Virus genome (UHGV): UHGV-1581764
DNA from: a virus
Direction: 5' to 3' (one strand)
Length of the DNA: 11,653 bases
Shown here: positions 1-11,653 of the stretch, piece after piece
Numbering within the stretch: position 1 is the first letter of the stretch
Layout of the letters: each line of letters starts with the position of its first letter
Translations under genes and position numbers: made by a program
The notes under the pieces: model-generated
The model's input: only the letters and a program-made list of their open reading frames with translations
Database searches by the model: none
What the model was told of the DNA's origin: nothing

Positions 1-228
1 ACGGCTGGGACGGAAGTCGCTGTCGTTCTCAAAATCGGTGGAGCTGCATGACAAAGTCATCGGGCATTATCTGAACATAAAACACTATCAATAAGTTGGA
101 GTCATTACCCATCAAGAAAACTCAAATTATGGGATGCGCTAGAGTTCCTCAAGGAATACTCACCGGAAAGAATAATATTCTATAACCTACGAAGGTTATT
201 TGTTACTTTCTGCGTAAACCTACAACTA

Positions 229-250
229 ACCTTCCTAAGTTAAGGAAGGT
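229..250 (-). terminator. Candidate intrinsic terminator hairpin downstream of the AT-rich cargo gene
   Basis: Perfect 8-bp stem ACCTTCCT/AGGAAGGT (229..236 and 243..250) with 6-nt loop. On the minus-strand transcript it lies about 33 nt past the cargo gene stop and is followed by a moderately U-rich stretch (UAGUUGUAGGUUU). The U tract is interrupted by G, so this is a weak call. Confidence 0.3.
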
Positions 251-282
251 ATTTATCATGAAGTGTAGACATAAGCGTATTA

Positions 283-1323
283 TTACATGGGCTTAACCAC
301 AACCTTTCCGTATATATCAAGTTTTGAATGTAATACGTTGACGTGAGACAATTCTTTATTCGAACTAACTTTATCTAAAATTATATTTTTATCTTTTTCA
401 GTCATGTTATACCCTAAGGTAATTTGCTTGAATGCAGAAAAAGGAATTTTCTTTAAGTTAATTTCATGATAGTCATGAAAAACATCAGGATACTCATTTA
501 ATAGGCAATCATCAATCGATGGAGAGACAATACTTCCTATCTTTCTCTCGCAATCAGCTAAAGGAAAAATAATTCTACTTTCATTTTCAGGAAGCCACTC
601 TTCACCTTTTGTATAAAGGAGCCTATTAATAAAAAGCTCGCGAACTGAATCTCGATTTAAGATCCCATGCAATGTATTATCTTTATTCTTTATATCTATA
701 TTCCTCGATGGCGCAGGATAGCCATTAAATCGCACAGCGCCTTTATAATAGGTTACAGATGCTCTATCTTCTGGATTATAACTAACATCACACGGCCTAT
801 ATATTTTGAAAAAATCGTGTGTTTCATCGAAAACTACAGCAAACCCCTTTCCTATCGATGCATAATGAGTCCACATGTGTAGATTGCAATCACTTTTTGA
901 TAGAGAGAATACACCAAGATGACAGCTTACGGCTTCTACTAAATAATCGTTAAGGTACGTTACTATTTCTTGGGGTTTAGATTCATCATATGAATCCATT
1001 GAGGTAAAACCTTCATTGATTAACAAGTGTGGAAAATCCTCTCCGTATCGTTTCCCGCAAGGTTTTAAATAATACTCTAACTCTTGTATAGATGGGACAT
1101 AAGATGGATCTCGTTGCATTTTCTTAAATTCATTTCTAGCCCATGCGTAATCGGCTGGTGAAAATTTATTAAAAAATGGAAGAAGTCGCGACTCACTCGA
1201 CGGATCATTAAGATACTTTGGTTGCGTTGCTCTAAAGAAACCATCCTCCAGACAAGATGTTCTAATGTGCATGCCCGGCCAAGGTTTTTCCATATAACTC
1301 TCGCCTATATATTTAACTAACAC
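283..1323 (-). CDS. Hypothetical protein with DUF2971-like core signature; AT-rich accessory cargo gene (candidate defence/exclusion protein)
   Basis: Longest ORF in the island, 346 codons as given. The start at 1323 is GTG with AGGA about 10 nt upstream; the first in-frame ATG is at 1293, preceded by purine-rich GGCGAGAG, so the start is uncertain. Stop TAA at 283..285. Hand counts of G+C: 15/60 (361..420) and 23/60 (901..960) inside this gene versus 30/60 (2101..2160) in darB. The segment HLGVFSLSKSDCNLHMWTHYASIGKGFAVVFD resembles, from memory, the conserved core of Pfam DUF2971; not verified by search. Confidence 0.7.
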   Translation of the reverse strand: MLVKYIGESYMEKPWPGMHIRTSCLEDGFFRATQPKYLNDPSSESRLLPFFNKFSPADYAWARNEFKKMQRDPSYVPSIQELEYYLKPCGKRYGEDFPHLLINEGFTSMDSYDESKPQEIVTYLNDYLVEAVSCHLGVFSLSKSDCNLHMWTHYASIGKGFAVVFDETHDFFKIYRPCDVSYNPEDRASVTYYKGAVRFNGYPAPSRNIDIKNKDNTLHGILNRDSVRELFINRLLYTKGEEWLPENESRIIFPLADCERKIGSIVSPSIDDCLLNEYPDVFHDYHEINLKKIPFSAFKQITLGYNMTEKDKNIILDKVSSNKELSHVNVLHSKLDIYGKVVVKPM

Positions 1324-1344
1324 TGTATATCGATCCTGTTGTTT

Positions 1345-1365
1345 AAGCCCATATCATATGGGCTT
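1345..1365. promoter_or_regulatory. 21-bp palindrome at the backbone/cargo junction; possible operator overlapping a -10-like hexamer for the cargo gene
   Basis: AAGCCCATAT-C-ATATGGGCTT has perfect 10-bp arms around one central base (checked base by base). It lies 10 nt after the lxc-like stop and about 20 nt before the cargo gene start. On the minus strand the centre reads TATGAT, a 5/6 match to the -10 consensus TATAAT. No U tract follows on either strand, so it is not a canonical terminator. Confidence 0.3.
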
Positions 1366-1375
1366 TAAATGATTA

Positions 1376-1624
1376 TTAATCAGCGTTCAGAAGCAATGCG
1401 TTATCTATGATGATCTGCTCCCATTCTTCGAATGCCCGGTCGCGGACGCCCTGGGGAACACTGTTAGTTTTGAAATCGACGACCGTCCGCCATTTTCCGT
1501 CAGGACGGTACATGCGCAGAGCTTTACTTCCCCCTTCCCTGCGCACCTCAACGTTATGCTTATCAGCAAACTCTTGCAATGCTCGTAGCGTCCCATGCTT
1601 TACTGTGTAGTATCGCTTCTTCAA
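1376..1624 (-). CDS. lxc: Lxc/Bof-like small basic protein (modulator of C1 repressor), TTG-initiated
   Basis: 82-codon ORF. The start is TTG at 1624..1622 with an SD-like GGAGAG 5 nt upstream, and it overlaps the stop of the preceding ORF (TTGA). Stop TAA at 1378..1376. Its position, two genes downstream of darB on the same strand, matches the P1 order darB-ulx-lxc as I recall it. I also recall that P1 bof/lxc is 82 codons with a TTG start; both are recollections, not sequence comparisons. Confidence 0.6.
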   Translation of the reverse strand: MKKRYYTVKHGTLRALQEFADKHNVEVRREGGSKALRMYRPDGKWRTVVDFKTNSVPQGVRDRAFEEWEQIIIDNALLLNAD

Positions 1625-2061
1625 GTTTTCTCTCCAGCCTGTGCCAAGGCTTCAACTTCCAAATCGTAAGACTCAAACTCATAGTCCTGGTCGTCAACCT
1701 CTTCAGGCACTGGCAGTAAATGCCAGGCTGAGTATATCTGACCATTATCAAAACGCTCCTGGCTGTAGAGCGTCGCGGCTATGAGTGTTAGCGCCGGGCG
1801 GTCATAACGGTAAATTTTGCGAACGTCACGATCAACGAGACGACCGAAATTACCATAACCGCGCTCCAGTAATAATTTTTTAATTTCCGGCCAGTATGGC
1901 CCATAGCTGCGGTACAGGCGGGGATTTTTAAGTAATCGCCCGCGTAGCCCTGACAGGAAGAAATCAACGTATTCGTCTTCTGTCTTTCCTAACAACGCCG
2001 TACGGAGTACCGCCTCAAGATATGTTTTATTCGGTTTTATTGTATCAGATAGTGTGGCCAT
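1621..2061 (-). CDS. Hypothetical 146-aa protein, Ulx-like by position (between darB and lxc)
   Basis: ATG at 2061..2059, 33 nt after the darB stop. Stop TGA at 1623..1621, overlapping the TTG start of the next gene. Acidic C-terminus (EEVDDQDYEFESYDLE). No recognisable catalytic motif. Backbone-like G+C. The assignment rests on gene order only. Confidence 0.6.
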   Translation of the reverse strand: MATLSDTIKPNKTYLEAVLRTALLGKTEDEYVDFFLSGLRGRLLKNPRLYRSYGPYWPEIKKLLLERGYGNFGRLVDRDVRKIYRYDRPALTLIAATLYSQERFDNGQIYSAWHLLPVPEEVDDQDYEFESYDLEVEALAQAGEKT

Positions 2062-2070
2062 ATTATGCGA

Positions 2071-2088
2071 CGCCCGGCAAACCGGGCG
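2071..2088 (-). promoter_or_regulatory. GC-rich stem-loop between darB stop and the 146-aa ORF start (possible attenuator or mRNA processing/stability element)
   Basis: CGCCCGG (2071..2077), loop CAAA, CCGGGCG (2082..2088): a perfect 7-bp all-GC stem. It sits inside the 33-nt intergenic gap directly after the darB stop TAA (2097..2095). On the minus-strand RNA it is followed by UCGCAUAAUAUG, which is not a strong U tract. Confidence 0.3.
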
Positions 2089-2094
2089 CTCCTG

Positions 2095-5000
2095 TTATGC
2101 GTATTGTTGGATGACGGCCAGAACGTCCGCCACGTTGTGTTTTGTCTCGATAATCCACCAGTTACCCGGGAAATCGCTGTTCTTCGCCTTCGCTGGCAGC
2201 CAGCGAGCGCCGAATTTCGCCTTGATTGCGTCTTTCGCACGGAAAAGAATGCCTTTCATGCCGGACGCCTCCTGAAGCCCAAATACCTCGCCAGCGGCGA
2301 ATTTTGGTGCGTACATCATCTTCAGGTCGGCGGTGGATACGCGATAATTCAGACCAAGAGACTGAGTTATGCTGGTGGCATCACCCTGTATTGATGATAA
2401 CTCTTCTTGTTTCTCGTTTCTGGCGGCAATTTCTTCCTCCGTGATGTTGCCAAGGGCCAGGTTTATCCGATCAGCGTCTGCCTGTTTCTCTTCATCGGTG
2501 CGCCCGGCAAGTACCGTGTTAATTCTGTGCAATATCTCCACATGATTCTTGCGCATGCTGAGCAACGCTGGCGTAACCTCGTTAAGGTCCACCAGCCCAA
2601 GGATGGCAAGGTCAGTAAACATTGATACCAGGTTGTAGGTCATGCGATAGCTGAGTTGCCCATAGGCTGATGGCAACTGCACCGCATCCATTTGATAGGC
2701 ATCCATAAATTTAGAGCCGTCGTTTACGACATCCGCAATTGCCGGTGTGATTTTCCCTGTGGTGGCGGCCTCCCTGATTGCTGTTACCCACGATTGAGTC
2801 AGCGCGGCGACTGCATGATTCAGATTGGCTTTCCGTTCTGCTGCAATACGCGCGCTTGCAGCGTCCATTGCCTGCTTGATCTCGTCTTTATTGCTGTAAA
2901 TGCCAATGGTGCCAAACTGTGCTGTGGTGATCTCATAATCTGACGCCCGGAACTCATGGGTACCGAAAATGGCATTGGTGACCTCAAGTTCAGAATCCCC
3001 GTTACGAGTAGCCCCCTGGCTTGTTTTCTCCGGCATTCTGGCGATCGCATCCGCTATTTTCTCCTGAATTGCTTCAGGGGATAGCGTATCTCCGTATGAC
3101 GCGATTACATCGCCATAATTGGAGCCAAACAGTTCAGTCAGGAATACTTCTGCCAAACGGACCTGGCGGTTATTCCCTTCCGACATCATACCAAGCACCC
3201 ATTTTGCAATTGACGACTTCAGCGCGCCGTCACGGCGATCCGGGTAAACCGCATGCTTCAGTGGGTCCGTATAGGTACCAACAAAATCAATGCTATAGCC
3301 TGACTCTGTAGTCTGAACGCCGTATGAGTCAGTGATTTTGATCATGCCGCGCTGCTGGAAACGGTAGAAATCGTCACAGGAAATGATGTCGTTAATCCCG
3401 GCGATGGAGACGCCACCACTGATTTTCTGCATAACAGCATCTTCATCGGGAGTTACATCCACCTGTTTATCCAGCGTCTTCACATCCCAGTTACCCGATT
3501 TGGTGCCTTTGAAGGTAAAGATGATCTCCACGTCTGCGCGCTGGCTGTCGAAGTCCAGCGACTTAATGCGAACGATATCACCGGCACAATCGTAGTATTG
3601 GCCTACACGCCATGAGCGATCGCCGATAACAAGGAACTCATTCGCATGGTTAACCAGATCAGGATCAACATCCAGAATGCCTTTATTTATTGCATCCTCC
3701 ACCAGCGGGCGCAGGCGTTTGATATCCGTCGCGGCCTTCTGAGTACGGTTCAATAATTTCTCATAGCGGGAGATGGCCTGAGAGATATTAGCCTTGCGCT
3801 GAATGGCGCTTTTCAACGACGCGCGATACTGTGCTAACAACGTACGGTCTGTGTGATGGACGCTACCCCAGCGGGCCTTCCAGTCTGCGTTATCAGCTGC
3901 TTTGGCCATTGCCGCCTGTTTGAATTTAGCTACCTCGGCGGTGGTCTTTTCAAGTTCCGCTTTGCTTCGCTCTAATTCAGCGGTAAGTACCTCCACATCC
4001 TCGCCAGCTGCGTGCTGCGCCTTGATGTAATTCTGAAGGTCGATAGTAGCCTGTTCTTTCTGGCGAGCGCGTTTCGCAGCTTTCGCCTTATCCATTTGAA
4101 CCTGCATCATTGCCAGACGTTCGCCGTCATCCTTCGCGGTATACATCTGCATTTCGATCATGTCATTGGCGTCGGCGTTCTCCATTTCCGACTTATCTGA
4201 ACGGAGGATATCGGAGATCCAGCCTGCTTTACGCTTCAGCGTCTTCAATCGGTATTCATCGAAAGACCCCTTGCCGCAGTAGTAGTGAACGCGAACGCTT
4301 GCACGGTTGGAGCCAACTCGAGCACCGCGACCGTTACGTTGTGCGATGCTGGCTGGAGTCCACGGCAACGTCAGGTGGTGGATATCCGTCGTTCCTCGAT
4401 GCAGGTTGATACCCACCTCTGCCTTTTTGTTGCAGATGATGATCGGAGTCCGGCCCTCCTGGAAGTCGGCTGCAATCTTTTCCAGACCGCCCAACGACAT
4501 TTCATTTTGCTGCGCGATATAGGCGTCATACAGAGCCATTTGCTCGTTGTATTTCGCTATCTGTGCATCTGTTGGTTCATCCGGTAGCTCTTTCGGCGGT
4601 TTAACCGCTTTCAGTTTCTTACCGGTTTTACCTGCCTCGGCAACCGTCTGAGCATTCAGGATCCCCACCTTTGAAGGTTCAAGGTTAAGAGCATTGCAGA
4701 TAATGCGCTTGAGCTTCTGGTGCTGCGTTTTTTCATCGGTGAAGATGATTTGCTTACCTTCCGGGAAAAACTCCTTCAGCGTGGCAATCAGCTTCGCGTA
4801 TTTGGGCGTAACGGGGTGAGTTACGGTCTGTTCGTCAATGCCAAACCTGGCCAGGCGCTTATTCACTTCCTGCTCGAACGCTTCCGGAACCTGTAACTGA
4901 ATAAACTCGCCCTTATCTATCAGGGAGTATTGCGATTGCTGCGTGATTGAATCATCACTGTCGTCGTCTTCGCTGGTGGCTTGTTTAGGCAAACTGTCCG

Positions 5001-8000
5001 CCAGCTGCTGCACCGCATCGGCGTACTCCGGCAGGAAACGATAGGTGATCCGGCGATAGTACAGGTCCATGTCAGTACATACGCGGTCCATATCCCTGAT
5101 TATTGAGAAGATCGGACGGGCTTTCTCGTGCTCAATCACGCCGTCTTCATTGACCGAGGTCGTTACGCCATTGTTGGCTTTGGCTGCCGCTTCCGCCTGC
5201 TGACGCAATTCTTCATACGCCGCCAGTTGTTCTTCAGTAAGTGGTGCATCCTGCTGGTGTTCGTCCAGCTCCGGGATCTCCACGGTATCCTTAACGTCTT
5301 CCGCCGTTTTAAGCGTTACCCAGCGATGGAATATACCGCGCAGCGCATCAAGGTTTTCAAAGCCCACCAGCGCCATTTTTTCTTCAACTTCACCGCTGAT
5401 TTTCTGTACCGTTTCCAGCCTGGTCTTACCGAAGAATTTAACGAAGTCATCAGGACCGTAGATCCCCATCTTCTGCCAGTATTCCTTCGGCAGAACATGA
5501 GAAAGCATGTTGTATGCATCGATCGGGGTGTTAACGACTGGCGTTGCAGTCAGGAGAACCGGCCCGCGCCCGCCATTCTTTTTCATCAGGTACGCGTTTT
5601 TAATTGCCATATCTCGCGCCGATTGCGCCACCGCGCTGGTGGGCAGATAGGCCAGCTGTGACGCTTCGCGACCATTTTTATAGCTATTGCGGTAGTTGTG
5701 GCCTTCGTCGGCGATCACGCTGTCGAAGCCCATATCCTCAAAGTACGGATACTTCTCTGCTTTTTCGGTGCCAGTATCTGAATACTCCGACAATACCCGG
5801 CGACGCGCGGCCTCTTTGCGGTGGGAGTCGGAGTCAATTGCGCTGGCTACGCGCCCGGCAGCAACGAAGTCATAAAGCATATCCTGTGCATGCTCATCTA
5901 CGGTGTCATCACGTAGCGGAATGCGGGCGTATTGTTCTTTGGTAAACACGACTGCACGGTAATTTGAGTGCGGGATCGCATTCATCCGCGCCGTGATAGT
6001 GGCTTCATCTGCCAGCTTAAGAGCATCGCGCATAACTGGAGTGCCATCAGTACCAAGAACAGGTTTACCGTTCTCATCGAGCACCGGCACCTGGCGAATC
6101 TGATCGCCATCCATCAGCACATCAAGACCGACGAACAGGTAGTTACTGAATGCCTCTTCACTCAGGAATTCTTTTGCTTCGTAATACCAGTTTTCCAGCA
6201 CTGATTTAGGCACTACATACGCAGTACGGGTGGAGCGACCGTTCTCATAGTTGAACGCCTCAAGTGCCAGCGCGGTCGTGGTTTTACCCAGCCCGGTGCC
6301 GAAGCCCAGGATGCCACGCCCATCTTCGGACAGTCGGCGCACCTCGCTATTCTGGTAATCAAATGGCTGGCGCTTACCGCTTAATCCCTTCAACCCAAGC
6401 GGATCGCCAGAGTGTTCATACGGGATATTGCTATTGAACACATCGTTGTATTTGGCAACCAGCTCATCGTAGCGATCGTGCGTCTTGATCCACTTATTGA
6501 ACTGGTCCTCAAGCAGTGCCATCTGCTCGCGGTAGCCGTTCGCCGTCGCGCTATCTTTGCCACCGATACGCGCACCATTGAGATACTTTTCCAGCTGTGC
6601 CGGGAACCCGGTCGCGTTTTCTCCTGATTTACGGTCCCACTCGTAGCGGATCTCGCCTGTTTCTTTATCCTTGCGCTGGACGACACCGTATCGGTGCCCG
6701 ACGAACAGGCCATCACCACCGTGATAGGTGTCAGAAACCATTTCGTCGCCTTCCAGCTGCACTGACTGCACATAGCGCAGATCCGGATAGCCGTTTTCCT
6801 GCAAAAATTCCAGAATGACGGAACGGTCGAACCAACGGCTATTGAGCTTAAACCGGATATTCTCTGCTGGCGTCTTGATGCGCTTCTCTTCGATCGCTGC
6901 CAGCTGATTAAGGACGTTGTTCTTTACTGGACCGTCGGGGAGCGTGGCGAGGAACTCCTGTTTTGGAGCCACTATCTCGTTAATGTCGCCGCTGGTGGCG
7001 CGGGCAAACGGAACAATCCCGCCATACGGTGAAACCGCAATGCCAGGGGTGCTGGCCAATAAATTAAGCAACTCGTCATCACTGGCTGGCAGTTCGCCGG
7101 TAAACGCAAGGCGGAAATCATCGAGCTGGATTGGATCGCGAGTGAGATCACTGTAGAGATAACGCAGGGTATCCTGATAGCTGGTGGAGTCATAACTGGC
7201 GCTGGAATCATGCGTAACCAGTTTTCCTGTCAGCTCGTCAGAAATAGTGCCATCCAGCTTAATTGCACCACGGAAAGCAAACCAGGCGCGCGCACCGCTC
7301 CCCGATAATTTCGCTATCGGACCGCGACCGGGGTTACCAAAACGGTCAATCTCTGCCTGCAAACGGGATACCAGAGAAAGGCGCTGCTGTTCGATTTGTT
7401 CAGCACTATGCCCGGCGGCCTTCATATCCTGATATTCAATTAACATCCGGCCAATCATCGCCCCACGATACAAGCGTTCACGGTATTTTTCAGGCTGGCT
7501 GTTAATCCAGTCCACCAGCTGCACCATATCGTCGCTGATTGATGTGGTGTACTTATCGCGGACATTTGCCATCTGGGTAAATGTCATACCGAGACGGCCT
7601 TCTGTTGTAGTCAGGTTACGCTGAAGAGCCTCCCAGCTATCCGCGCCATAACTGGCAACCTCAATCTTCAGCTCCTTCCCGGCATCAGCTTCAATCCAGC
7701 GACCACCAGCATATTTTTGCCATACGCCATTAATCAGGCGCATTTCCCCTTCATCAACAACATCTGCGGTCGGTGACGGTTCAGTCATATCGAGCAAAGA
7801 CCAGTCGATACGACTTTCGAAACGATGAATCAGCTTCGCTTTAAGAGCCTGGTTATCAATCTGCCCGTCGGCACGAACCTCAATACGCCCCTGGAAACCC
7901 TTCTCCTGGGTGCCATGAACAAACCGGCGGCCGTCCTTTTCGAACCACTTGCCAGAAATAAACGTTGGCCAAAGCACATTTGCCGATTCAAGAGTGCCTT

Positions 8001-8862
8001 CATCCACCAGGGGGATTTTCTCAGCCATCTCTGCCGGATGTTTACGCATCAGCACCACATCAACGACCGTACTGGTCCCGTTTGCGTCAAAAGTACCGGT
8101 AGGCAAGCGGTGAGCGCCAAGAAATTCAGCTTTACGGGATAGGCGCAGGCGTAACCGCTTCATGTTTGAACCTGAAACAATGGACGGCGGCACAATCACG
8201 CACATGAATCCGCCAGGCTTTATCTTGTCCAACATGCGGAGCATGAAGTAAGACCCCATGTCCGTTTCTTCTGCGTAAGGTTTATCGATGTTGCGTGTGT
8301 TATCACGACCACCGAACGGAACGTTACCCACCACATGGTCGAATGAATCGTTAGGCGTGCTTACAGCCAGCTGTTCGAACGGGGAAATCTGTACGCTGTC
8401 TTCCGGGTGTAACAGCTGGTTTATACGACCGGAAACACTGCTGATCTCAGTCGCGGTCATCACCGTACCAACCGGTTTTGTCTCATTAAAAACGCCGGTG
8501 CCCGCCGATGGTTCCAGAGTATTACCTACGTCCGCGCCATAGAGCTTCATGATCTCCCAGACACCTTCAGCGATAGGCTTTGGTGTGTAATATTCGGAGA
8601 CGGACCCGCCAATGCCGCCTTCGCCGGTGTACCCAGCCAGGATCTGGCGCTGTTCATCTGTCAGTGTCGCGCCGTCCACCAGCGAATTAAGCAAATCTAT
8701 CGCCTTCTGATTCGCCTCCCGGCGTAGTCGGTCATAGCTTTTGCCTTCCACCTTTTCCACGCCGTATCTAATCGGCGCTCGGTGAGATGTTATTGCCCTA
8801 ATGTATTTCAATATTTCGCTGACACTTGAACAGCGAAACACCCCCATAGATAGCTTGTTCAT
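2095..8862 (-). CDS. darB: DarB-like antirestriction protein: N-terminal N6-adenine methyltransferase-like domain fused to an SF2 DExH helicase, with a long C-terminal extension
   Basis: Uninterrupted 2255-codon ORF. ATG at 8862..8860 with AAGGA 6 nt upstream; stop TAA at 2097..2095. Methyltransferase motif I LEPSAGTGVF is encoded at 8488..8517 and a motif IV-like FDHVVGNVPFGG at about 8310..8340. Helicase Walker A GTGLGKTTT is at 6274..6300, DEGH at 5698..5709, TATP(V)VN follows, and the motif VI-like QRNGRGAR is at 4318..4341. This architecture and the length match what I recall for phage P1 DarB (about 250 kDa, methyltransferase plus helicase). Confidence 0.9.
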   Translation of the reverse strand: MNKLSMGVFRCSSVSEILKYIRAITSHRAPIRYGVEKVEGKSYDRLRREANQKAIDLLNSLVDGATLTDEQRQILAGYTGEGGIGGSVSEYYTPKPIAEGVWEIMKLYGADVGNTLEPSAGTGVFNETKPVGTVMTATEISSVSGRINQLLHPEDSVQISPFEQLAVSTPNDSFDHVVGNVPFGGRDNTRNIDKPYAEETDMGSYFMLRMLDKIKPGGFMCVIVPPSIVSGSNMKRLRLRLSRKAEFLGAHRLPTGTFDANGTSTVVDVVLMRKHPAEMAEKIPLVDEGTLESANVLWPTFISGKWFEKDGRRFVHGTQEKGFQGRIEVRADGQIDNQALKAKLIHRFESRIDWSLLDMTEPSPTADVVDEGEMRLINGVWQKYAGGRWIEADAGKELKIEVASYGADSWEALQRNLTTTEGRLGMTFTQMANVRDKYTTSISDDMVQLVDWINSQPEKYRERLYRGAMIGRMLIEYQDMKAAGHSAEQIEQQRLSLVSRLQAEIDRFGNPGRGPIAKLSGSGARAWFAFRGAIKLDGTISDELTGKLVTHDSSASYDSTSYQDTLRYLYSDLTRDPIQLDDFRLAFTGELPASDDELLNLLASTPGIAVSPYGGIVPFARATSGDINEIVAPKQEFLATLPDGPVKNNVLNQLAAIEEKRIKTPAENIRFKLNSRWFDRSVILEFLQENGYPDLRYVQSVQLEGDEMVSDTYHGGDGLFVGHRYGVVQRKDKETGEIRYEWDRKSGENATGFPAQLEKYLNGARIGGKDSATANGYREQMALLEDQFNKWIKTHDRYDELVAKYNDVFNSNIPYEHSGDPLGLKGLSGKRQPFDYQNSEVRRLSEDGRGILGFGTGLGKTTTALALEAFNYENGRSTRTAYVVPKSVLENWYYEAKEFLSEEAFSNYLFVGLDVLMDGDQIRQVPVLDENGKPVLGTDGTPVMRDALKLADEATITARMNAIPHSNYRAVVFTKEQYARIPLRDDTVDEHAQDMLYDFVAAGRVASAIDSDSHRKEAARRRVLSEYSDTGTEKAEKYPYFEDMGFDSVIADEGHNYRNSYKNGREASQLAYLPTSAVAQSARDMAIKNAYLMKKNGGRGPVLLTATPVVNTPIDAYNMLSHVLPKEYWQKMGIYGPDDFVKFFGKTRLETVQKISGEVEEKMALVGFENLDALRGIFHRWVTLKTAEDVKDTVEIPELDEHQQDAPLTEEQLAAYEELRQQAEAAAKANNGVTTSVNEDGVIEHEKARPIFSIIRDMDRVCTDMDLYYRRITYRFLPEYADAVQQLADSLPKQATSEDDDSDDSITQQSQYSLIDKGEFIQLQVPEAFEQEVNKRLARFGIDEQTVTHPVTPKYAKLIATLKEFFPEGKQIIFTDEKTQHQKLKRIICNALNLEPSKVGILNAQTVAEAGKTGKKLKAVKPPKELPDEPTDAQIAKYNEQMALYDAYIAQQNEMSLGGLEKIAADFQEGRTPIIICNKKAEVGINLHRGTTDIHHLTLPWTPASIAQRNGRGARVGSNRASVRVHYYCGKGSFDEYRLKTLKRKAGWISDILRSDKSEMENADANDMIEMQMYTAKDDGERLAMMQVQMDKAKAAKRARQKEQATIDLQNYIKAQHAAGEDVEVLTAELERSKAELEKTTAEVAKFKQAAMAKAADNADWKARWGSVHHTDRTLLAQYRASLKSAIQRKANISQAISRYEKLLNRTQKAATDIKRLRPLVEDAINKGILDVDPDLVNHANEFLVIGDRSWRVGQYYDCAGDIVRIKSLDFDSQRADVEIIFTFKGTKSGNWDVKTLDKQVDVTPDEDAVMQKISGGVSIAGINDIISCDDFYRFQQRGMIKITDSYGVQTTESGYSIDFVGTYTDPLKHAVYPDRRDGALKSSIAKWVLGMMSEGNNRQVRLAEVFLTELFGSNYGDVIASYGDTLSPEAIQEKIADAIARMPEKTSQGATRNGDSELEVTNAIFGTHEFRASDYEITTAQFGTIGIYSNKDEIKQAMDAASARIAAERKANLNHAVAALTQSWVTAIREAATTGKITPAIADVVNDGSKFMDAYQMDAVQLPSAYGQLSYRMTYNLVSMFTDLAILGLVDLNEVTPALLSMRKNHVEILHRINTVLAGRTDEEKQADADRINLALGNITEEEIAARNEKQEELSSIQGDATSITQSLGLNYRVSTADLKMMYAPKFAAGEVFGLQEASGMKGILFRAKDAIKAKFGARWLPAKAKNSDFPGNWWIIETKHNVADVLAVIQQYA

Positions 8863-11645
<2,783 letters not shown>

Positions 11646-11653
11646 CACCCTCC

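Follow-up and report, generated by a model that had tools for sequence, protein, structure and literature searches.

The window analysed here is an 11,653-nt stretch of viral DNA (UHGV virus genome UHGV-1581764; one strand, 5' to 3'), and its longest gene is almost certainly darB of a P1-like (Punavirus) phage-plasmid, the orthologue of the gene for the antirestriction protein DarB of phage P1. The feature is not new: darB was recognised by genetics in 1987, and its sequence followed in 2004. The original prediction had described a single 2255-codon open reading frame (ORF) on the minus strand, encoding a DarB-type fusion of methyltransferase and helicase; we reproduced this frame, and translation at the positions of the four motifs that it quoted returned exactly the same peptides. 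With 3 stop codons among 64, a frame of 2255 codons would stay open by chance with a probability of ~1e-47. The gene, its signals and its domains lie as follows.

2095..8862, minus strand: darB coding sequence, 2255 codons plus a TAA stop; 98.9% amino-acid identity to P1 DarB in an ungapped alignment
8869..8873, minus strand: Shine-Dalgarno sequence AAGGA, 6 nt ahead of the darB ATG, read from the sequence
8918..8948, minus strand: PdarB, a sigma-70 promoter carried over from the P1 annotation through an alignment of the intergenic region; −10 hexamer TAGAAT at 8918..8923 and −35 hexamer TTGTCT at 8943..8948, both as in P1
8773..8862, minus strand: capsid-targeting sequence, codons 1-30, the same as in P1, where it was defined experimentally (PMC9024508)
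8593..8772, minus strand: putative helical N-terminal module (LPD36-like), aa 31-90, assigned from the sequence and the description in PMC5512222
7993..8592, minus strand: putative gamma-class N6-adenine methyltransferase domain, aa 91-290 (Pfam N6_Mtase and Eco57I)
8581..8586, minus strand: TP motif of the methyltransferase, T93-P94 in Y-Y-T93-P94, which caps the N-terminal helix (criterion of Iyer et al. 2017, PMC5512222)
8488..8517, minus strand: methyltransferase motif I, LEPSAGTGVF, aa 116-125
8314..8325, minus strand: methyltransferase motif IV, NVPF, aa 180-183, 64 residues past L116
5473..6366, minus strand: lobe 1 of the SNF2-type ATPase, aa 833-1130 (Pfam SNF2-rel_dom and ResIII)
6274..6300, minus strand: ATPase motif I, GTGLGKTTT, aa 855-863
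5698..5709, minus strand: ATPase motif II, DEGH (DExH), aa 1052-1055
5539..5550, minus strand: ATPase motif III, TATP, aa 1105-1108
4312..4500, minus strand: ATPase lobe 2, aa 1455-1517 (Pfam Helicase_C), which holds motif VI
4318..4341, minus strand: ATPase motif VI, QRNGRGAR (QxxGRxxR), aa 1508-1515
2098..4182, minus strand: C-terminal third, aa 1561-2255, with a predicted long helical stretch followed by a fast-evolving module

BLASTP aligned the protein to P1 DarB (AAQ13985.1) with 2230 of 2255 residues identical and without a gap, and PHROG 1685 was matched from end to end (1-2255). The P1 record AF234172 places darB at 10469..17236, that is, 2255 codons plus a stop, which is the length that the original prediction had given, and describes the gene as 'defense against restriction; putative DNA adenine methyltransferase and helicase'. 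At the nucleotide level darB differs from P1 at 121 positions, with 93 codons changed synonymously and 25 non-synonymously (Nei-Gojobori dN/dS = 0.077); none of the 25 substitutions falls in a catalytic motif, the final 659 residues carry 14 of them (binomial P = 0.005), and the first occurs at residue 32, residues 1-31 being the same as in P1.

The match to P1 extends beyond the gene. In a megablast search against phage records, 1376..11641 of the window was 97.7-98.2% identical to P1 (AF234172, AF234173 and NC_005856), P7, RCS47, SJ46 and others, and the features under the P1 match (lxc, ulx, darB, prt and pro) keep the P1 gene order; the P1-like backbone that had been proposed for the window is thereby borne out. 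P1 DarB and its orthologues in P7, RCS47, SJ46 and JL22 agree with the protein described here in their length of 2255 aa, domain order and capsid-targeting peptide, and the genes agree in their neighbours (lxc, ulx and the divergent prt-pro operon), promoter hexamers and 11 Chi sites, whereas the 25 amino-acid substitutions and the surrounding element set the present gene apart from that of P1. In the 75-nt divergent intergenic region, the hexamers of PdarB and the late promoter LPpro are unchanged from P1. At least 80% of darB is present in 441 plasmids of PLSDB, and at least 80% of the window in 419 of 5426 complete E. coli genomes (~8%); identity over the window does not exceed ~98.5% for any record of the phage, plasmid and E. 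coli collections. ORFs on the plus strand within darB, such as 5128..5661 (177 aa), were taken as shadow ORFs; P1 annotates none there.

A gene of this composition could also be read as a host-type defence enzyme (a fused restriction-modification protein, or a relative of DISARM DrmD or BREX PglX) instead of an anti-defence protein, and PADLOC and NCBIfam models indeed return weak matches to DrmD, ZorD, DpdE, PglX and Type I and Type II methyltransferases. However, all of these are partial-domain matches far under the cut-offs: the whole-protein NCBIfam score for DrmD (NF038317) is 44.5 bits against a cut-off of 610, and that for DpdE 29 against 500, and membership of DarB in either equivalog family was rejected on these scores. 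Moreover, the Pfam scan found no nuclease domain in DarB, and the gene sits among virion genes. Because the protein is nearly identical to the genetically characterised DarB of P1 and its scores for defence families remain below the cut-offs, the host-type reading is effectively refuted.

Hidden Markov model searches gave the domain order that had been read from the motifs: a methyltransferase, then the SNF2 and Helicase_C lobes, all above the Pfam gathering scores. N6_Mtase (PF02384) matched aa 145-290 with 32.8 bits (gathering score 20.4) and Eco57I (PF07669) aa 166-244 with 31.8 bits (25.3); SNF2-rel_dom (PF00176)/ResIII matched aa 833-910 with 42.4 bits (24.9) and Helicase_C (PF00271) aa 1455-1517 with 27.7 bits (23.5). 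A sequence search of solved structures placed aa 86-267 nearest to the M subunits of Type I systems, EcoKI HsdM among them (E = 1.5e-4 to 7e-4), and gave a weak match of aa 1461-1560 to SsoRad54 (PDB 1z63; E = 0.006).

The assignment of the methyltransferase domain to the gamma class is supported because motif I precedes motif IV with 54 residues between F125 and N180, and with no recognition domain between the two motifs, and because the domain shows affinity to HsdM and Eco57I; the motif IV-like segment that the original prediction had placed about 60 residues after motif I corresponds to NVPF. HsdM (EcoKI M, PDB 2ar0 / 2y7c) and the Eco57I-type gamma-class N6-adenine methyltransferases share with DarB the order of motif I before motif IV and the TP motif, but DarB has neither an HsdS-type partner nor a recognisable target-recognition domain, carries NVPF rather than NPPF as motif IV, and has its methyltransferase domain fused to a motor.

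The superfamily 2 (SF2) motifs I, II, III and VI follow one another in canonical order, as had been claimed, and the ATPase part is an SNF2-type SF2 ATPase; 'helicase' in the description of DarB is to be understood in this sense. Proteins of the SNF2 family are usually duplex-DNA translocases rather than strand-separating helicases. SNF2/Rad54-type translocases such as SsoRad54 resemble DarB in the order of motifs I, II (DExH), III and VI, whereas the matches of DarB to SsoRad54, DISARM DrmD and ZorD are weak and partial, and DarB has an insert of ~340 residues, which separates motif III from lobe 2.

Comparison with more distant relatives shows which parts of the protein are held fixed. We aligned 17 full-length members of the DarB family with 32-49% identity to the window protein. 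Invariant in all 17 are T93, P94, E117, P118, S119, G123, F125, G179, N180 and P182 of the methyltransferase; T856, G857, G859, K860, D1052, E1053, H1055, A1106 and T1107 of ATPase lobe 1; and Q1508, G1511, R1512 and R1515 of lobe 2. Compared with the canonical (N/D/S)-P-P-(Y/F/W), motif IV of the window protein keeps N, P and F and replaces the first P with V. As 14 of the 17 members have NVPF, two NPPY and one NAPF, NVPF can be taken as the normal motif IV of this family, a variant form of the catalytic motif and not a decayed one. Mean identity to the window protein is 0.52 in the methyltransferase core and 0.52 and 0.56 in the ATPase lobes; it is 48% in the N-terminal module, which contains a G-x-G-G/S run at aa 80-87, 0.17 in the targeting peptide and 0.17-0.23 in the C-terminal third. 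As the catalytic residues are invariant in the 17 members while other regions drift to 17% identity, both active sites are under long-term purifying selection, and the ends of the protein evolve fast.

The C-terminal third deserves separate mention. The Pfam scan gave no match in the last ~700 aa of DarB, and a single-sequence AlphaFold2 model of the C-terminal 696 aa (mean pLDDT 43, pTM 0.26) did not have the quality that a fold search requires. With the C-terminal third as query, HMMER was run exhaustively against 1.84 billion cluster representatives and returned only 70 hits; among these, every distant protein (22-35% identity) is 2.1-2.3 kaa long and is matched at the same C-terminal position, and the four distant proteins that we scanned show the Eco57I / SNF2 / Helicase_C layout at nearly equal coordinates. 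Because the hits are confined to DarB-family proteins, at the same position and with the same layout, the C-terminal third is to all appearances a module specific to the DarB family and not a shuffled domain.

A word-index search with the C-terminal 696 aa recovered only relatives of at least 71% identity, many of them truncated or chimeric. In the database proteins P0004, P0005, P0010 and P0017, the C-terminal region of DarB is fused to domains of DarA type (PF18788/PF18789), DdrB type (PF18763) or other kinds, and there are also many fragments of 400-500 aa named 'helicase, partial'. These proteins look like deletion products in decaying prophages, and suggest that the dar genes of resident P1-like plasmids undergo frequent deletions and fusions.

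Outside the P1 group the likeness becomes partial. A tblastn search of phage records found 21 full-length copies in the P1 group and ~100 'DarB-like' proteins with less than 60% identity, which share with DarB only the methyltransferase and sometimes also the SNF2 part; this sharing agrees with the 'methylase-helicase dyad' of polyvalent proteins (PMC5512222). The 'DarB-like' polyvalent virion proteins (PHROG 10089) of Bcep22-like, Ralstonia, Agrobacterium and Thermus phages have an LPD36-like module and an EcoKI/TaqI-type adenine methyltransferase module, some of them with an SNF2 ATPase, at 24-32% identity, but are up to ~4600 aa long or otherwise composed, and lack the P1-type C-terminal third.

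The other features of the window are the following.

283..1323, minus strand: DUF2971 gene, 346 aa (Pfam DUF2971, E = 4e-6; PADLOC PDC-S31, E = 2e-16; PHROG 1762)
1376..1624, minus strand: lxc (bof), modulator of the C1 repressor; protein identical to that of P1
1621..2061, minus strand: ulx, a small virion protein for placement of DarB in the capsid (PMC9024508); 2 substitutions relative to P1
8877..8895, plus strand: LPpro, late promoter of the divergent prt-pro operon, as in P1
8938..10633, plus strand: prt (portal), with a 14-nt deletion at 9056/9057
10626..11645, plus strand: pro (head processing / prohead protease); 2 substitutions relative to P1

The deletion in prt removes 'GTATTTGTTTTCTC' of P1 and shifts the frame after codon ~40, and the frame from the P1 start (TTG 8938) meets a stop after 57 codons; the remaining 525 Prt codons are open in the ORF 8879..10633 (GTG 8879), with 7 substitutions relative to P1. 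A 36-mer over the junction had no match in 72,556 plasmids of PLSDB and 5,426 complete E. coli genomes, and the undeleted sequence is found in 489 plasmids. Either the sequence is in error here, or the deletion is a genuine mutation private to this element, in which case the portal is disabled and DarB cannot be delivered.

Taken as real, it invites a reading in which darB, although intact, is stranded in a defective P1-like plasmid prophage whose broken portal leaves DarB neither packaged nor delivered. The stop 57 codons past the P1 start, the absence of the junction from all records searched and the frequency of truncated or chimeric darB fragments in databases would fit such a state. However, the deletion could be an error of sequencing or assembly; the open downstream frame from GTG 8879 leaves room for an event of recent date or for a portal with an altered N-terminus; and the dN/dS of darB gives no sign of decay. 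We regard this reading as unlikely.

On the left, homology to the P1 reference begins exactly at the lxc stop (1376). The slot that in P1 holds mod and res (EcoP1I) is here a low-GC stretch (0.35-0.41) with a single 346-aa ORF, the DUF2971 gene, which occupies the res/mod slot in MH422554, MH445380 and 86 plasmids as well. DUF2971 is predicted to be a DarT/AbiGi-like ADP-ribosyltransferase (PMC12522546), and the gene, a defence candidate by its PADLOC and Pfam matches, is probably the one that the original prediction had in mind when it described darB as neighbouring a possible defence gene; that statement holds roughly, but the two genes are not directly adjacent, as lxc and ulx lie between them. 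An IS1 end at 1..110, 100% identical to IS1 copies, directly adjoins the last ~76 nt of a truncated P1 mat (1..185), and a 41-mer across the IS1-mat junction had no match in PLSDB.

Because res/mod is replaced, an IS1 lies at another site than in P1, beside a truncated mat, the prt deletion is private and darB carries 121 differences, the element is a close relative of P1 and not P1 itself. The source had been given as 'P1 or a close relative', of which the second half stands and the first, in view of these differences, does not.

A few further observations concern the ends of the window. A terminator-like hairpin (229..250; 8-bp stem, ACCTTCCT...AGGAAGGT) is located between the mat end and the DUF2971 stop codon, and a promoter/terminator scan of 1..2300 gave no more sites than shuffled sequence. 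On the right, the window ceases to resemble P1 3 nt short of the pro stop codon (TGA here, TAA in P1), and the last 12 nt (11642..11653) differ from the P1 lydE region and are too short to interpret. An Rfam scan of the window at gathering thresholds matched no RNA family.

What DarB does in P1 has been described in some detail, and the literature agrees with the background given in the original prediction, namely a packaged protein of about 250 kDa that guards incoming DNA from Type I restriction. P1 DarB is a 250-kDa head protein with ~40 copies per virion; it is loaded last into the procapsid, after Hdf/DarA and then DdrA, DdrB and Ulx, and its loading depends on Hdf, DarA, DdrB and Ulx; P1 lacking DarB, Ulx or DdrB is sensitised to EcoB and EcoK; and DarB leaves the head with the DNA and protects in cis only, that is, DNA of its own virion, against the Type IA enzymes EcoKI and EcoBI (PMC9024508, PMC12810830, PMC12707154). 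Residues 1-30 of P1 DarB are able to direct DarB or a reporter protein into the capsid (PMC9024508).

For the mechanism we follow the methylase-SNF2 dyad model of polyvalent proteins (Iyer et al. 2017, PMC5512222). DarB would enter the cell as an active enzyme along with the injected DNA; its SNF2 motor would track on the entering duplex at the expense of ATP; and the fused methyltransferase would act on adenines of the incoming DNA. As a result, either the DNA would no longer be read as unmodified by Type IA enzymes, or host modification would take over before the Type I complex could finish translocation and cleavage. Taken as a whole, the explanation offered here (an orthologue of P1 darB, in the P1 layout, with enzymatic protection as the putative function) has in our estimate a probability of roughly 0.9. 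Its mechanistic part, that protection works by SNF2 tracking and adenine methylation, is more finely balanced, and we place it at even odds.

Several points weigh against this explanation. The mechanism of DarB 'has not been defined' according to PMC11109961, and PMC12707154 says likewise; in the literature we found no report that DarB has methyltransferase or ATPase activity. NVPF departs from the canonical motif IV. The use of one methyltransferase for the two unrelated target sequences of EcoKI and EcoBI implies that its specificity would have to be low, and if the enzyme diffused freely, phage infecting the same cell should also be protected in trans, yet Dar gives no such protection. As for the locus, darA, hdf, ddrA and ddrB lie outside the window (in P1 they are found past pro and the lysis genes, and the window ends at pro), and the adjoining portal gene is frameshifted; if the frameshift is real, the element could not make virions or deliver DarB.

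The main rival to the enzymatic model is passive shielding, in which DNA-bound DarB would block recognition or translocation by Type I enzymes, and both folds would serve as DNA-binding modules only. The cis-only action fits this rival, as does the occlusion hypothesis summarised in PMC12707154; DarA and DarB are grouped with proteins that bind transferred DNA (PMC5512222); and the literature that we found reports no enzymatic activity for DarB. However, ~40 copies per virion cannot coat 94 kb, and the catalytic residues of both enzymes are invariant at 32-49% identity while their surroundings drift, which is the pattern of retained catalysis. Because both catalytic centres are invariant at this distance and NVPF is the normal motif IV of the family, we favour an enzymatic mechanism over passive shielding, which we consider rather improbable.

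The darB sequence itself has been connected with antirestriction through its Chi sites. The window contains 14 Chi sites (GCTGGTGG) between 2371 and 11060, on both strands, where shuffles predict 0.27. The 6.8 kb of darB hold 11 of the 14, 5 on the plus and 6 on the minus strand, a density ~40-fold above chance and the same number and split as in P1. That P1 is rich in Chi and that its darB has 11 sites was reported in PMC11109961. Among the darB sites, five of the six on the sense strand encode x-L-V-(D/E/G), and all five on the antisense strand (A/S/P)-T-S-x.

These sites raise the alternative that darB DNA itself adds to antirestriction, by RecBCD/RecA-dependent alleviation in which ClpXP degrades HsdR. 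Apart from the excess of Chi, it would be in line with the observation that plasmids with darB, or with its first 350 codons followed by a premature stop, inhibit EcoKI in a manner that depends on Chi, the EcoKI site and ClpX (PMC11109961). That effect, however, was obtained with multicopy plasmids, requires that the molecule itself carry an EcoKI site and works in trans on the cell's pool of EcoKI, whereas Dar protection of phage is cis-only and requires the packaged protein and its targeting peptide; P1 is rich in Chi genome-wide, so that the density is not specific to darB (PMC11109961); and we found no EcoKI site in the darB sequence. We judge a contribution of this kind very unlikely.

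A combined reading, in which the darB locus would provide two layers of antirestriction (a packaged enzyme with a C-terminal module for specificity or docking, and Chi-rich DNA), is also doubtful in our view. Under such an arrangement the C-terminal third (aa ~1560-2255) could set the range of host systems that DarB acts against, or the way in which it docks in the head, and the Chi sites could trigger RecBCD-dependent alleviation during infection, by analogy with their effect on plasmids.

In conclusion, the conserved active sites of DarB argue for an enzymatic mechanism of protection, and otherwise the gene adds little to the biology already described; the P1-type phage-plasmid backbone explains the neighbouring genes, and the P1 res/mod position emerges as a variable slot for defence genes, occupied here by the DUF2971 gene.

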